Positions 1,367 to 4,599 of a stretch of DNA of 55,360 nucleotides are shown piece by piece. Where the stretch lies: positions 1 to 55,360 of the forward strand of contig DATESZ010000264.1 of assembly GCA_035283845.1 (NCBI GenBank), written 5' to 3'. Source of the stretch: Syntrophales bacterium (GTDB lineage: Bacteria > Desulfobacterota > Syntrophia > Syntrophales > JACQWR01). Below the pieces are notes generated by a model, which saw nothing but the letters and a program-made list of their open reading frames with translations, had not been told where the DNA came from and ran no database searches. Within the stretch, counting starts at the first letter, position 1. Each line of letters opens with the position of its first letter. Made by a program: the position numbers and the translations under genes.

Positions 1367-1425
1367 GTTCAACAAAGGTTTCGAGCGGACGGGGTGAAGC
1401 TCCGCCGCTCAAACCGGCGTTATCC
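1367..1425 (+). repeat. attC-like folded repeat a (59 nt)
   Basis: GTTCAAC-AAA-GGTTT[C]GAGCGG[A]CGG-ggtgaagct-CCGCCGCTCAAACC-GGC-GTTATCC. The TTA of the right core is the stop of 1420..1599. Confidence 0.75.
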
Positions 1426-1599
1426 TAATATCAACTGCCGATGTTTCCACGCATCGTCGGCAAGCCCTTCGGCGTCCTCTACTGGTAATTTCCGCAACCT
1501 GTCATGTTGTCCGGTCTGACACGCGTCATCATAAATATTCGCCGCATAGGTAGCTAAAAATGTTACCGTAAAGTGTTCTTTAAATTCTTTTTCGTCCAT
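1420..1599 (-). CDS. Hypothetical cassette protein, 59 aa
   Basis: Internal ATG of ORF 1420..1776 preceded by GGGGGGAAG. The longer ORF-track start would read through repeat b. Confidence 0.6.
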   Translation of the reverse strand: MDEKEFKEHFTVTFLATYAANIYDDACQTGQHDRLRKLPVEDAEGLADDAWKHRQLILG

Positions 1600-1618
1600 A
1601 ATCTTCCCCCCATTAAAA

Positions 1619-1705
1619 GGATAACAATTAAATGAAGCGGAGCGGAAAGTCGCTCGTCGCGCCTCATTCTTGGGCTTTGGCCGCCCGCTTATTCCTGCGT
1701 TGTGT
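1619..1705 (+). repeat. attC-like folded repeat b (87 nt)
   Basis: GGATAAC-AATTA-AAT[G]AAGCGG[A]GCGG...CCGCCCGCTTATT-CCTGC-GTTGTGT. About 88% identical to repeat e. Confidence 0.75.
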
Positions 1706-1783
1706 AAAATAAAACCATAAACTGAAAGATGCCCACAAAGTGAAACAAAAAATCCCAGCACCAAGAAAGGCACCATAAAAAAG

Positions 1784-2227
1784 ATGACGGATACGATTGT
1801 TGGAGCACTTATCGGGGTCGGCAGTGCTATTCTCGGCGCGATTGTTGGAGCTTGGATCGGTTATCGACTCTCCATTTCTTTGGTTCATGTCACTACTCGA
1901 CACAATGCTGCGTCCAATTTGAGGAAAGCTTTCTATGACGAACTTGCCATCTTGAATATGAGCAGCCTTAAAGATATTGATGCCTGTTCTATGCTTGAGG
2001 GTGCTTTCAAGAAACATATGATCGCTTTTTGGGAACTCAAATCCACCTTGCCGAAAAGCAAATGCGTTGCTTTCACCCAGGCATGGGAAGAGTATTATTG
2101 TTATCCAGGAACAGGGGACCATCATCTTGAACAATACGACACACTTACTGGAGGCTCGGAACAGCGTAAGGGGAAAAGAACGCTTGCAATTAAACGGATT
2201 GAACATATTCTCTCCTTTACTGAATAA
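1784..2227 (+). CDS. Hypothetical membrane-anchored protein, 147 aa; the only plus-strand gene in the array
   Basis: ORF track. N-terminal hydrophobic helix (IVGALIGVGSAILGAIVGAWIG). More protein-like than the antisense ORF 1664..2245. No clear SD. Confidence 0.5.
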   Translation: MTDTIVGALIGVGSAILGAIVGAWIGYRLSISLVHVTTRHNAASNLRKAFYDELAILNMSSLKDIDACSMLEGAFKKHMIAFWELKSTLPKSKCVAFTQAWEEYYCYPGTGDHHLEQYDTLTGGSEQRKGKRTLAIKRIEHILSFTE

Positions 2228-2239
2228 ATGAAAAAGACC

Positions 2240-2298
2240 ACACAACCAAGCACTACAGCGGACAGGCTGATCGCCTGCCGCTGACCTTTGCGTTATGT
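2240..2298 (+). repeat. attC-like folded repeat c (59 nt)
   Basis: ACACAAC-CAAGC-ACT[A]CAGCGG[A]CAGGC-tgatc-GCCTGCCGCTGACC-TTTGC-GTTATGT. The right core holds the stop of 2293..2496. Confidence 0.8.
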
Positions 2299-2496
2299 TT
2301 CAAAATCCTTCAAAGTCATATGTCCCTGGCATACAAAAACAATGACAGAGAAGAAACAACATTCCCAATACGTGGGTTGGAGTATGGCAAAACGAGCGGG
2401 TACGTTCCATAAATAGTAATAACCAAACCACAATAATCCGCCCGTGGCTGCCCACCAGAAAATACAGTACAAAGCAAATGCAAAATATTTTAACAT
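2293..2496 (-). CDS. Hypothetical small membrane protein, 67 aa
   Basis: ORF track. Two hydrophobic segments rich in W/Y/F. The start codon is the CAT of the left core of repeat d. Confidence 0.5.
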   Translation of the reverse strand: MLKYFAFALYCIFWWAATGGLLWFGYYYLWNVPARFAILQPTYWECCFFSVIVFVCQGHMTLKDFET

Positions 2497-2580
2497 AACA
2501 AGCTCACTGAACCCGACCGGAATTACGTCCGGTGCGTTTCAGCCAAATCCGTGGCCAGCGGGTTATCTCTGGCGTTATCT
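2493..2580 (+). repeat. attC-like folded repeat d (88 nt)
   Basis: ACATAAC...AACCCG-ACCGGaattacgtCCGGT...CGGGTT-ATCTCTGGC-GTTATCT. The central ~60 nt are identical to repeat g. Confidence 0.7.
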
Positions 2581-2581
2581 A

Positions 2582-2788
2582 TCACTCAAGTACCCGATAG
2601 TTTTTAAGTGGAATCCATCGGCCCTTGTCCTCGATCATACACCCACCGAAAAAAGTCCATTCATGTTGTTTCCCTATACGGCTTGCCTGGCCATCGCATT
2701 CCATTTTTCCCGCGATAGGGATTAGTGCAAGAATTGCAAGAATTGCGACCGCTATGACCACTTCGATAATTGTAAATCCTTTCATCAT
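2582..2788 (-). CDS. Prepilin-type N-terminal domain protein (pilin/pseudopilin-like), 68 aa
   Basis: MMKGFTIIEVVIAVAILAILA matches the G-F-T-L-I-E prepilin cleavage/methylation motif plus a hydrophobic helix. AAGGAG SD lies before the ATG at 2788. Confidence 0.7.
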   Translation of the reverse strand: MMKGFTIIEVVIAVAILAILALIPIAGKMECDGQASRIGKQHEWTFFGGCMIEDKGRWIPLKNYRVLE

Positions 2789-2809
2789 CCGTCTCCTTTT
2801 AAATTTAAA

Positions 2810-2896
2810 AGATAACAATTAAATGAAGCGGAGCGGAACATCGCTCGTCGCTTCTCATTCACGGGCCTTGGCCGCCCGCTTATTACTGCGTTATGC
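2810..2896 (+). repeat. attC-like folded repeat e (87 nt)
   Basis: AGATAAC-AATTA-AAT[G]AAGCGG[A]GCGG...CCGCCCGCTTATT-ACTGC-GTTATGC. The right core holds the stop of 2891..3280. Confidence 0.8.
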
Positions 2897-3280: not shown

Positions 3281-3302
3281 TCCCTAACTCCTTAAAATAA
3301 AA

Positions 3303-3362
3303 GCATAACAATTAGTTGCAGCGGACAGGCTAATCGCCGCGCCGCTGACCTTTGCGTTAGCT
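3303..3362 (+). repeat. attC-like folded repeat f (60 nt)
   Basis: GCATAAC-AATTA-GTT[G]CAGCGG[A]CAGGC...CCGCTGACC-TTTGC-GTTAGCT. The right core holds the stop of 3357..3545. Confidence 0.8.
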
Positions 3363-3545
3363 TCCGTAGCATCTTTTCCTTGGCCCTTTGCATCCCATAC
3401 ACGGGTTCTCTCCCTTATTTACAAGTCCCATCACAATCATTCCACCCAATAAACACGTTTTGGGAACGTACCCTTGTCCGATTGCCATTTGCAGATTAAT
3501 ATCGTCGCTGTCTGCTTCTATTTGACTAAAATAATGTGGTTTCAT
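3357..3545 (-). CDS. Hypothetical cassette protein, 62 aa
   Basis: Internal ATG of ORF 3357..3575 preceded by AGGAGAG. Confidence 0.55.
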   Translation of the reverse strand: MKPHYFSQIEADSDDINLQMAIGQGYVPKTCLLGGMIVMGLVNKGENPCMGCKGPRKRCYGS

Positions 3546-3566
3546 TCGATCTCTCCTTTCAAAAAT

Positions 3567-3649
3567 AAAGAACAATTCAACCCCGACCGGAATTACGTCC
3601 GGTGCGTTTCAGCCAAATCCGTGGCCAGCGGGTTATCTCTGCGTTATAT
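3567..3649 (+). repeat. attC-like folded repeat g (83 nt)
   Basis: AAAGAAC-AATTC-AAC[C]CCG-ACCGGaattacgtCCGGT...CGGGTT-ATCTCTGC-GTTATAT. Confidence 0.75.
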
Positions 3650-3654
3650 CCCGA

Positions 3655-3873
3655 TCATTTAAAGTACCGCAAGAAGCAATCGTAGCAGCATTCCTTGTCT
3701 TCATAAATACCATCAAGGCCAAGAATTACATGTTTACCGCACTTGAAGCACTTCCCCGTTAGTGGCAACGGTTCCGTCCCGACATTTGAGAACATTGCAT
3801 TAAAGTGGTCGGATATTCTTAACCTTTCTGCCTTTCCTACTTCCGACTCTTCCCATTGTCCTTGTGTTGGCAT
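3655..3873 (-). CDS. Hypothetical zinc-ribbon protein, 72 aa
   Basis: ORF track. CFKCGKH...CCYDCF cysteine pairs. AGGAGG SD. Confidence 0.6.
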   Translation of the reverse strand: MPTQGQWEESEVGKAERLRISDHFNAMFSNVGTEPLPLTGKCFKCGKHVILGLDGIYEDKECCYDCFLRYFK

Positions 3874-3896
3874 ATTGAATTCCTCCTAAAATACTG

Positions 3897-3982
3897 ATTT
3901 AACCAGTCACTACAGCGAACGGGGATCACACGCTGCGGCTTCCATCATGCCCGTGGCCCCGCCGCTGACCTTAGCGTTAGCA
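3897..3982 (+). repeat. attC-like folded repeat h (86 nt)
   Basis: ATTTAAC-CAGTC-ACT[A]CAGCGa[A]CGGGG...CCCCGCCGCTGACC-TTAGC-GTTAGCA. The left core fits RYYYAAC exactly. The right core holds the stop of 3977..4219. Confidence 0.8.
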
Positions 3983-4219
3983 TTTAGGACATGAAACTCG
4001 TTTGTTGTACGTTTGCCAGCCCATAAATGTCTTGATGCTTTGCCAAGGGTGATGTTCTAATTTCTTAATAAGTTCCACATTACATCTTTGGCATTTAGTA
4101 TGAAAATTAAGGCCATCATAAAAACATTCACCAACAATATGACCAAGGGAAAAACATAAAAGAATGCTAACAATTTTATCCAGCGGACGGGTAATTTCGT
4201 CCTGTGGTTTTTCATTCAT
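3977..4219 (-). CDS. Hypothetical Cys-rich protein, 80 aa, with a repeat-encoded N-terminal leader
   Basis: ORF track. The only start codon and SD (GGAGG) lie inside repeat i. The first 17 codons (MNEKPQDEITRPLDKIV) are shared with 10081..10608. Confidence 0.5.
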   Translation of the reverse strand: MNEKPQDEITRPLDKIVSILLCFSLGHIVGECFYDGLNFHTKCQRCNVELIKKLEHHPWQSIKTFMGWQTYNKRVSCPKC

Positions 4220-4254
4220 GTTCTACCTCCCCGCCGATGATAACGGCGTTATAT
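4165..4254 (+). repeat. attC-like folded repeat i (90 nt)
   Basis: TGCTAAC-AATTT-TAT[C]CAGCGG[A]CGGG...CCCGCCGATGATA-ACGGC-GTTATAT. nt 4168..4224 are identical to 10557..10613 in repeat o. Confidence 0.75.
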
Positions 4255-4497
4255 TCTGATACACCTTACTGCCGTCTCCTGCCCCAACGGGAACTCAAAG
4301 CACGATGACCACTTAGTGCAGCATCTCCTCGTATGCGGAACTGAATGTAGACATGTGTATCCCGCCATTTTGAAACATTTGTCAGCGTTGATACACCTTA
4401 CATCGGGCTTTAGTTTAAACCTCCTCCCTTTTTTTATTACAACGGCTTCCCCGATTTCTCCTTTTTCACCCGCAACATAATTCCTGATATTCCCCAT
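4249..4497 (-). CDS. Hypothetical cassette protein, 82 aa
   Basis: Internal ATG of ORF 4249..4557 preceded by GGAGGGG. The stop lies in the right core of repeat i. Confidence 0.5.
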   Translation of the reverse strand: MGNIRNYVAGEKGEIGEAVVIKKGRRFKLKPDVRCINADKCFKMAGYTCLHSVPHTRRCCTKWSSCFEFPLGQETAVRCIRI

Positions 4498-4513
4498 AAC
4501 CCCTCCAAAAACC

Positions 4514-4599
4514 AGATGACAATTAAATGAAGGCGACGGGAAGTTACTCCGTCGCATTCAGACACGCTCACCGTCCCGCGCCTTATTACTGCGTTAGCA
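4514..4599 (+). repeat. attC-like folded repeat j (86 nt)
   Basis: AGATGAC-AATTA-AAT[G]AAGGCG[A]CGGGA...TCCCGCGCCTTATT-ACTGC-GTTAGCA. Same plan as b and e, with compensatory changes. Confidence 0.75.

Follow-up and report, generated by a model that had tools for sequence, protein, structure and literature searches.

The window, i.e., the entire stretch of 55,360 nucleotides analyzed here, is a complete circular phage genome of approximately 55.2 kb. Comparison with 50,697 GenBank phage records revealed no DNA similarity, and a Syntrophales MAG is credited with a protein identical to one of the phage, which hints at Syntrophales as the host. The leftward early operon of the phage, whose minus-strand coding is supported by PHROG and Pfam matches, contains an array of hairpin-forming repeats that is split into two blocks (1367-5285 and 9604-11583) and extends beyond the segment 1367-4599, in which these repeats had been noticed in a first-pass annotation. 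The operon is preceded by a promoter-like site, from which transcription would run antisense to the polarity of the repeats (Table 1).

A covariance model built solely from window copies (R1) recovered 15 full copies, from a to q, all on the + strand and with E values from 5e-14 to 3e-4. The same sites scored 50 to 67 bits on the + strand versus 7 to 14 bits on the minus strand. Together with two to three degenerate copies, the array comprises approximately 17 co-oriented sites, which are designated attC for the reasons given below.

Table 1. Positions of the attC sites and associated features in the window
Feature	Position	Strand	Evidence and remarks
Candidate outer R' GTTGAACTCC	95..104	+	9/10 positions complementary to R'' of attC a; weak
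attC a	1367..1425	+ (top; bottom strand on -)	R1 55.1 bits, E 5e-11; MFE equals predicted hairpin, z -3.6
attC b	1619..1705	+	R1 59.8 bits; outer R' TTGTGT (1700-1705) belongs to next cassette (junction analysis)
Canonical bacterial-type cassette	1700..2292	+	ORF 1784-2227, then own attC c; antisense to phage operon
attC c	2240..2298	+	R1 65.1 bits; other strand 7.5 bits
attC d, long variable loop	2493..2580	+	R1 51.3 bits; R'' overlaps start codon of minus-strand ORF 2293-2496
attC e	2810..2896	+	R1 62.1 bits; MFE favors alternative local fold
Reverse-cassette gene, 129 aa, DNA methyltransferase-like fragment	2891..3280	-	phrog_111 E 2e-12; Pfam Dam 5e-5
attC f	3303..3362	+	R1 67 bits on +, 14.1 bits on -
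attC g, 5' spacer partly deleted	3563..3649	+	R1 28.6 bits, E 3e-4
attC h	3897..3982	+	R1 53.2 bits
attC i	4165..4254	+	R1 55.8 bits; loop holds RBS and ATG of minus-strand ORF 3977-4219
attC j, GAC replacing AAC	4514..4599	+	R1 54 bits
Reverse-cassette gene, 117 aa	4600..4953	-	phrog_8581 E 4e-10
attC k	4984..5046	+	R1 55.6 bits
attC l, truncated 5' half, no recognizable R'	5228..5285	+	read by eye; missed by R1
attC n	9604..9669	+	R1 45.8 bits; MFE z -4.1
attC o	10554..10643	+	R1 60.1 bits; 5' arm and loop common to i; within 5' end of ORF 10081-10656
attC p, unpaired base displaced	10880..10942	+	R1 49.5 bits
attC q	11133..11221	+	R1 51.3 bits
attC r, degenerate remnant	11528..11583	+	R1 8 bits, E 5.3; read by eye
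Promoter-like site	12107..12135	-	11/12 consensus positions; placed to drive leftward operon

The repeats share the anatomy of attC sites

On the + strand, the sites are composed of AAC, a 5-nt spacer, 3 bp, one unpaired base, a 6-bp box, an unpaired A, and an inner stem, followed by the complementary box, 3 bp, a 5- to 6-nt spacer, and GTT. Eleven window copies display this recurring layout with a perfect 6-bp box, the 5' side measuring 9 nt and the 3' side 8 nt in nearly every one of them. The R'' triplet is AAC in 14 of the 15 full window copies (GAC in j) and the R' triplet is GTT in all 15; when the copies of eight viral contigs are added (43 copies in total), the triplet pairs A-U, A-U, and C-G are formed in 41 to 42. 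The central spacer between the R and L boxes (5 nt versus 5 to 6 nt) is noncomplementary and unpaired in all copies. Two unpaired bases 6 bp apart on the AAC arm, a variable one and an A, had been described in the first-pass annotation for about 10 copies; the feature is real, but this count was low, as the A is present in 13 of 15 window copies (exceptions, p and q) and in 41 of all 43. The outer base is C in 24, G in 13, and A in 6 copies, i.e., C in only 56% on the top strand, unlike in known attC sites. The spacing agrees with attC structural models, G16 and T23 being the two extrahelical bases of attC-aadA7 (PMC5027507). Both attC-aadA7 and attC-dfrA14 likewise possess R''/R' boxes with AAC/GTT, an unpaired spacer of 5 to 6 nt, and an L box, and known attC sites and the phage sites are further alike in having a variable loop, a length of 51 to 90 nt, a more stable bottom strand, and the same junction scar. 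All attC traits that we checked at the sequence level were found, and the single-stranded DNA of each site is predicted to fold into an R box, an unpaired spacer, an L box with two extrahelical bases, and a variable terminal loop.

Covariation supports folding at the DNA level

The helices listed in the first-pass annotation were all recovered at their positions, and its proposal that structure rather than sequence is conserved was borne out by covariation. For 14 window copies, 86.9% of the cells were paired, compared to 31 to 54% in slid registers; 11 of 18 pairs were altered on both sides (10 of 13 among the L-box and inner-stem pairs), and the covariation score was reached by none of 500 shuffles. 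With all 43 copies, the paired fraction was 89.9%, and cells altered on both sides numbered 95 versus 28.5 ± 3.9 after shuffling. In 10 copies (a, b, c, f, g, h, k, n, o, and p), unconstrained DNA folding recovered the arm pairing; copy q adopted a branched fold with the arm pairing kept in the centroid, whereas the minimum free energy (MFE) folds of d, e, i, and j are local alternative hairpins. Local folds, raised earlier as a possibly better explanation of the conservation, are preferred on energy in these four copies, but arm pairing is recovered in 10 others and supported by covariation. For the long copies, the arm pairing consequently rests on covariation and not on energy.

Nearly all stem changes replace one Watson-Crick pair by another and very few cells are G-T, which fits a DNA hairpin. 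The same observation, read as few G-U cells, argues against hairpins acting in RNA, as terminators, attenuators, processing sites, or stabilizers of the leftward polycistronic transcript with only a coincidental likeness to attC. Such a role could be expected from the presence of hairpins between nearly every pair of small genes and from the A/T-rich minus-strand stretches that follow them before the next ribosome-binding site, and attC sites are themselves thought to contain weak terminators (Qi et al., PMC9892861). However, the main hairpins were not called as terminators and have no T-run abutting the stem, only internal sub-hairpins being flagged; no hairpin matched an Rfam family; and the AAC/GTT ends, the fixed unpaired A, the R''/R' scar described below, and the family identity with IntI-adjacent sites would be left unexplained. 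We regard an RNA-level explanation of the hairpins as extremely improbable.

R1 recognizes validated attC sites, and the family adjoins bacterial IntI genes

Recognition was tested reciprocally by running the window-copy model against validated attC sites. In four class 1 integron loci, the matches of R1 were all on the cassette-coding strand; they comprised the attC sites that follow dfrA14, arr-2, and dfrA1 as well as one located upstream of qacEdelta1, and the 49 kb yielded no further match. In Tetrasphaera phage TJE1, for whose CALIN three attC sites have been reported (Qi et al. 2023, PMC9892861), it found exactly three, one at the 3' end of each of orf1 to orf3. A family-specific pattern matched at least 120 bacterial genome contigs, in which R1 identified 153 sites, many of them in co-oriented arrays. 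In Smithella, Desulfobacteraceae, Omnitrophota, and a deltaproteobacterial MAG, such arrays lie beside IntI homologues that share 41 to 48% identity with IntI1. The chromosomal integrons of Syntrophales, Desulfobacterales, and Omnitrophota (L124, L147, L112, and L141) share the attC family TAAC-N9-CAGCGGA...CCGCTGAYYNNNNCGTTA, and one array of this kind holds a homologue of a window cassette. These chromosomal arrays have an adjacent IntI gene and carry their genes on the top strand (32 of 36 clear cases), whereas the phage shows neither property; its cassettes are also much smaller, the median spacer being approximately 240 bp in the window versus approximately 640 bp in sampled bacterial arrays.

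Within the phage, no IntI was found in Pfam and NCBIfam scans of 31 ORFs or in a six-frame tblastn search of the whole window with IntI1, and the window therefore lacks the intI gene that, with adjacent attI and Pc, makes up a complete integron. By the IntegronFinder definition (PMC4889954), a CALIN comprises two or more attC sites that share a strand and are separated by less than 4 kb, without an integrase in the vicinity, and two co-oriented attC clusters lacking IntI therefore constitute a CALIN. Recombination of the sites would accordingly depend on a host IntI, unless the phage possesses an integron-like system of its own, in which the catalytic-domain-only small tyrosine recombinase encoded at 19544-20188 acts on the attC-like sites. 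This protein is the sole tyrosine recombinase among those scanned (Pfam Phage_integrase, E 8e-16; best NCBIfam match, XerA-like), yet it scores below the NCBIfam IntI equivalog model and aligns to IntI1 with an E value of only 0.03. Furthermore, none of 80 viral loci encoding homologues (at most 53% identical, examined with as much as 10 kb of flanking sequence per side) has an attC match, and the recombinase is missing from all attC-bearing viral contigs retrieved, so that a phage-owned system appears very improbable.

Most cassettes are reversed relative to attC polarity

In attC sites, the extrahelical bases are located on the L'' arm, i.e., the AAC arm, of the top strand (PMC5027507); since they occupy the AAC arm of the + strand here, the + strand is the top strand. 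The complement strand was the more stable one in 32 of 43 phage copies (P = 0.0025; 8 versus 7 for the window copies alone), and bacterial copies showed the same direction (123 of 153). Judged by extrahelical-base position, strand stability, and the strand matched by the model, the minus strand is the predicted recombinogenic bottom strand. The bulged arm had initially been taken to mark the recombinogenic strand; the attC asymmetry is present, but the + strand arm bearing it belongs to the top strand.

The bottom strand doubles as the coding strand, which makes most of the cassettes "reverse," with attC upstream of the gene, unlike in known attC contexts. Gene and attC lie on opposite strands in eight of the nine clear cases in the window and on the same strand in one, four further cases being ambiguous; reverse polarity holds for 42 of 49 clear cases in viral contigs versus 4 of 36 in bacterial arrays. 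Read along the coding strand, a reverse cassette opens with the attC site, in some cases the source of both ribosome-binding site and start codon, and continues with a small phage gene. The canonical arrangement of an ORF on the top strand with attC on its 3' side occurs in the window only at 1700-2292. This inverted gene direction, not remarked on in the first-pass annotation, is the unusual part of the phage array. Nivina et al. (2016, PMC5027507) state that neither mobile nor chromosomal integrons had ever been observed to contain cassettes facing the promoter.

Junction scars indicate cassette-by-cassette insertion

The outer R'' of a site matched the outer R' of the preceding site at four of four positions in 8 of 14 adjacent pairs, but matched its own R' in 0 of 15 sites and the outer R' of other pairs in 10 of 196 (P = 5e-5 for the excess in adjacent pairs). 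This complementarity reads as the scar of site-specific insertion, cassette by cassette. The canonical cassette at 1700-2292 has a homologue, P0002 (62% identical), in the canonical four-attC array L264; the DNA homology (73.7% over 578 nt) begins no more than a few bases away from G|TTGTGT in the attC before it, which is unrelated. Likewise, L242 and L260 share a reverse cassette that is bounded by its own R' on one side and by the outer R' of an unrelated attC preceding it on the other. Some viral contigs share homologies restricted to the cassette body, which leave out both flanking attC cores (L007 versus L258). At the left end of the array, GTTGAACTCC is possibly the boundary of a TnpB-carrying cassette that would end with attC a. 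The near-identical attC cores b/e, d/g, and i/o have unrelated flanks on both sides, a common situation in chromosomal integrons but one for which crossover by IntI at R' is not a sufficient explanation.

A probable phage CALIN of reverse cassettes

The attC-like reading of the folded repeats is upheld by the cross-detection of validated attC sites, a family adjoining IntI genes, and the cassette-junction scar. Based on these sequence comparisons, the repeats are very probably integron attC sites that form a two-block CALIN in the phage early operon, consisting mostly of reverse cassettes and built by site-specific insertion. Cassettes would have been inserted singly through recombination at G|TT of R', presumably by an IntI supplied by the host. 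Replication starting near the GC-skew minimum (~12 kb) would place the bottom strands on the lagging-strand template, a suggestion derived from GC skew only, which is confounded with transcription direction; this location favors attC folding and excision (PMC13108822).

The array may currently be static, since four assemblies of the phage, 99.7 to 100% identical over the parts compared, showed no cassette polymorphism. This uniformity, together with the indexing of the phage TnpB protein in 81 blocks of the assembly collection, the degenerate copies g, l, and r, the mismatched boxes in h and i, and the non-AAC triplet in j, would suit a fossil array, assembled by past IntI-type activity and now kept as inert, neutral or regulatory spacers. 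Nevertheless, 13 of 15 sites retain every structural feature with compensatory changes, cassette content differs among related phages with 99% identical backbones (L008, L004, and L002), and unrelated viral contigs carry homologous cassettes, which makes a fossil array unlikely.

attC clusters in phages are already known (Qi et al. 2023), and the near-universal backward orientation of the genes sets the present array apart from them. As in the window, phage CALINs described previously are co-oriented attC clusters without an integron integrase, and both contain methyltransferase-like cargo (PMC9892861). The three attC sites of TJE1, however, show canonical polarity, each one following an ORF on the coding strand, compared to approximately 17 reversed sites in two blocks here.

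A different kind of early-gene module is found in T4-type phages, in which small early genes lie between the repeated stem-loops of PeSL (promoter-early stem-loop) cassettes, believed to allow the shuffling of modules. PeSL elements combine a promoter with a terminator-like hairpin and act through homologous recombination; they are not known to possess an AAC/GTT core or extrahelical bases or to be linked to an integrase. For the cassettes described here, we tentatively consider a pool of the phages' own, in which reverse cassettes (attC, ribosome-binding site, and small early gene) would be read from phage promoters antisense to attC polarity and possibly shuffled between unrelated phages by host integron integrases.

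Phage attC arrays are a recently recognized route by which integron cassettes are moved, and the array in the window is among the largest, in a phage genome with systematic inversion of gene direction versus attC polarity. If this proposal is true, the reversal would silence phage genes captured by a bacterial integron as well as bacterial cassettes captured by the phage, e.g., that at 1700-2292, and it may put the recombinogenic strand on the lagging-strand template, favoring cassette turnover during phage replication. If the pool is phage specific and mobile, phage and bacterial cassettes would share recombination sites yet be insulated in expression, and integron integrases would help determine how plastic the early and accessory genes of phages are.

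Genome context of the hairpin array

The window spans an entire phage genome. Positions 1-141 are identical to 55220-55360, a 141-bp assembly overlap; the genome is circular or terminally redundant with a size of 55,219 bp, and other assemblies of the phage (55.3 to 55.5 kb) are circular permutations of the window. Phage functions are represented by the large terminase, an SU10-like portal with adaptors, and an ERF recombinase with exonuclease. A minus-strand operon of small genes extends from ~12.1 kb leftward to ~1.3 kb, and the hairpins (copies a to r, clustered at 1367-5285 and 9604-11583) are located between its genes. 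At ~12.1 kb, two promoter-like sites are placed back-to-back and divergently, and coding strand and GC skew both switch there, making the pair (12107-12205) a candidate control and origin region. An Rfam scan of the window returned a group I intron only and no family at the hairpins, and no match to the array was obtained in 50,697 phage records by megablast and sensitive blastn. When four other assemblies were compared for gain or loss of cassettes, they were 99.7 to 100% identical over the parts compared, the sole difference being a 33-bp tandem repeat. Outside the attC sites, minus-strand ORFs contain near-identical short repeats (7835-7910 and 10105-10180, 98.7%; 6789-6822 and 9757-9790, 100%), and a 65-residue region with 52% identity is common to ORFs 7817-8101 and 10081-10656.

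Features of the phage genome and of one bacterial locus
Feature	Position	Strand	Details
TnpB gene (OrfB_IS605, Cas12f-like TNB domain)	139-1302	-	own promoter-like site before the gene, 1309-1338
33-bp tandem repeat	8405-8632		inside ORF 8345-8932; copy number differs between L014 (another assembly) and the window, otherwise 99.9% identical
Half-site-like sequence CCGCCAGCTTATCCGCACGTTATAC	12066-12092		resembles attC 3' arm, no matching 5' arm; just downstream of leftward promoter
Near-consensus sigma-70-type promoter-like site	12107-12135	-	11/12 positions
Near-consensus sigma-70-type promoter-like site	12178-12205	+	12/12 positions
Tyrosine recombinase, ~200 aa, catalytic domain only	19544-20188	+	Phage_integrase, 8e-16; XerA-like as best NCBIfam match; terminase genes lie just downstream
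Group I intron	28722-29617	+	Rfam RF00028, 53.3 bits; within region of ORF 28749-30446, structural module
IntI homologue, 48% identical to IntI1	L124 (Smithella MAG) 2306-3331		same strand as its attC array ("inverted integrase" arrangement)

Structure and covariation of the hairpins

Read on the + strand, the copies consist of AAC, a 5-nt spacer, 3 bp, one unpaired base, a 6-bp box, an unpaired A, the inner stem and loop, the box complement, 3 bp, a 5- to 6-nt spacer, and GTT. Every helix quoted in the first-pass annotation was found in the window. Fourteen loop-trimmed window copies were aligned (A1), and a covariance model (R1) was built on this alignment. In A1, 86.9% of cells are paired and both sides have changed in 11 of 18 pairs; its covariation score was reached by none of 500 shuffles, and slid registers were only 31 to 54% paired. 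R1 recovered 15 full copies in the window, every one on the + strand, and 28 further copies (E ≤ 0.001) in eight IMG/VR contigs; larger ORFs were scanned in six of these contigs, five of which gave phage-type or DNA-metabolism Pfam matches. The resulting 43-copy alignment has 89.9% of its cells paired and 95 double-sided cells versus 28.5 ± 3.9 in shuffles, and G-U cells are nearly missing. Conservation of structure over sequence by compensatory helices, as originally proposed, is thus borne out by covariation beyond shuffles in both alignments. The inner unpaired base, claimed to be an invariant A, is A in 41 of the 43 copies, and the outer one is variable as described. The first-pass annotation had also cautioned that local folds might explain the conservation better than long-range arm pairing. 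This caution is justified: unconstrained folding favors local hairpins for copies d, e, i, and j, and in the long copies the arm pairing rests on covariation. A loose geometric scan for copies produced chance matches too numerous to be of use.

The hairpins are attC sites

R1, made from phage copies alone, was applied to four class 1 integron loci (49 kb), where it detected the attC sites that follow dfrA14, arr-2, and dfrA1, together with a single site located upstream of qacEdelta1; these matches were full-length and throughout on the cassette-coding strand, with no other match in the 49 kb. Tetrasphaera phage TJE1 carries a CALIN (cluster of attC sites lacking integron integrase) with three attC sites (Qi et al., PMC9892861), and R1 found exactly three sites, at the 3' ends of orf1, orf2, and orf3. 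IntI1 was shown to recombine phage-borne attC sites, those of TJE1 included (Qi et al., PMC9892861). A family-specific attC pattern matched contigs of bacterial genomes, at least 120 in all, from Syntrophales, Desulfobacterales, Omnitrophota, and other groups; R1 identified 153 sites in them, many in co-oriented arrays. A motif and NCBIfam scan of 8-kb bacterial fragments found no IntI; tblastn with IntI1 found it in five loci (L112, L124, L141, L147, and L173). Such arrays are flanked by IntI homologues 41 to 48% identical to IntI1 in Smithella, Desulfobacteraceae, Omnitrophota, and a deltaproteobacterial MAG. Because of this cross-detection of known attC sites, the bacterial family, and the adjoining IntI genes, the hairpins are attC sites, as the first-pass annotation had suggested, and belong to a family that is widespread in the environment. 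No IntI was found in the phage window, which makes the array a CALIN; CALINs in phages have been described before.

The small tyrosine recombinase at 19544-20188 was considered as a partner of the attC arrays and rejected, since 80 homologous IMG/VR loci, inspected up to 10 kb on each side but with the gene near the contig end in many, contained no attC match. It is not an IntI, and it has no association with attC arrays in the loci compared.

Strand and gene polarity

The top strand of an attC site is the one with extrahelical bases on the AAC arm (Nivina et al., PMC5027507), and the window + strand has them there. The complementary strand is more stable in 32 of 43 phage copies (P = 0.0025), with the same direction in 123 of 153 bacterial copies, and R1 scores at the same sites are 50 to 67 bits on the + strand and 7 to 14 bits on the minus strand. 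Extrahelical-base position, strand stability, and model strand therefore identify the minus strand as the predicted recombinogenic bottom strand. The first-pass annotation had assigned this role to the + strand, which is the top strand; in this respect alone its attC interpretation has to be reversed, the hairpins themselves being real.

The array genes are on the minus strand too, with matches to phrog_111 for 2894-3280 (2e-12) and to phrog_8581 for 4603-4953 (4e-10) and matches for two more minus-strand ORFs. In the cassettes of attC i, o, and d, the gene's start codon falls within the cassette's attC or across its edge; in i and o, the ribosome-binding site is there as well. Sites i (4165-4254) and o (10554-10643) have a common 5' arm and a common loop carrying ribosome-binding site and ATG, so that ORFs 3977-4219 and 10081-10656 start with the same 17 residues, whereas the 3' arms differ. 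By a strict ORF criterion, eight window cassettes have the gene opposite to attC polarity, one has it on the same strand (1700-2292), and four are ambiguous. Among non-redundant viral contigs, 42 cassettes are opposite and 7 same, versus 4 and 32 in bacterial arrays (Fisher P = 2.5e-12). TJE1 shows canonical polarity, whereas the window genes are mostly reversed. According to Nivina et al. (PMC5027507), no promoter-facing cassette had been seen in a mobile or a chromosomal integron. A literature search for reversed cassettes in phages led to Qi et al. 2023 alone and to no report of reversed arrays.

Cassette-by-cassette assembly

In 8 of 14 pairs of neighboring sites, the four bases outside AAC (R'') are fully complementary to the four outside GTT (R') of the site before; the corresponding counts are 0 of 15 for a site's own R' and 10 of 196 for other pairings (P = 5e-5). 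This complementarity between neighbors is the classical cassette scar. It shows that recombination happened but, taken by itself, is silent on polarity, as either polarity would leave this pattern. The evidence for polarity comes from where the extrahelical bases lie, from strand stability, from the strand on which the model matches, and from the attC core that accompanies a homologous cassette body.

Individual cassettes are units with G|TT boundaries. A protein entry filed with a Syntrophales MAG is identical to the product of the + strand ORF (147 residues) of cassette 1700-2292, and a homologue (62% identical) of this ORF sits in the canonical four-attC array of bacterial locus L264. The DNA homology between the window cassette and L264, 73.7% over 578 nt, begins only a few bases from G|TTGTGT in the unrelated attC that precedes the cassette, and this TTGTGT finds its complement in ACACAAC, the R'' of the cassette itself. 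In L264, a canonical cassette with an AAA_15/AAA_21 ATPase gene (1085-2575) is adjacent to this homologue. Phages L008, L004, and L002 have 99% identical backbones and differ in cassette content left of a common attC 3' arm. A reverse cassette (gene on the attC bottom strand) common to viral loci L242 and L260 (68% identity) extends from the outer R' (GTTATGC) of the unrelated attC before it to the R' of the attC that belongs to it. The near-duplicate pairs i/o, b/e, and d/g do not place the crossover point, since their flanks differ on either side.

The half-site-like sequence at 12066-12092 may be a half-site, situated where the array ends on its promoter side. At the opposite end, GTTGAACTCC at 95-104 is complementary to R'' of attC a at 9 of 10 positions; the TnpB gene may itself lie in a 1.3-kb reverse cassette, or it may belong to an IS inserted beside the array. 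In the assembly collection, 81 blocks are indexed as containing the TnpB protein. A small ORF forms the body of a reverse cassette in viral locus L008 (9786-9959), and an 81% identical ORF in L006 (7934-8108, reverse-complemented locus) is >2 kb from the nearest attC match, a hint that phage genes can occur both with and without attC association.

Proposed mechanism and significance

We infer that an IntI supplied in trans by the host would act on bottom strands that fold out of the minus strand, and that it would excise, insert, and swap cassettes, both between phages and between phages and the integrons of the host. Cumulative GC skew is lowest at ~12 kb; speculatively, if this were the origin, the minus strand would be the lagging-strand template across the array, an orientation that favors attC folding and excision (PMC13108822). 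Both attC sites and a CALIN in a phage are already known kinds. What is new, and merits follow-up, is the size of the array, the smallness of its cassettes, and most of all the reversal of gene polarity, which many viral contigs share.
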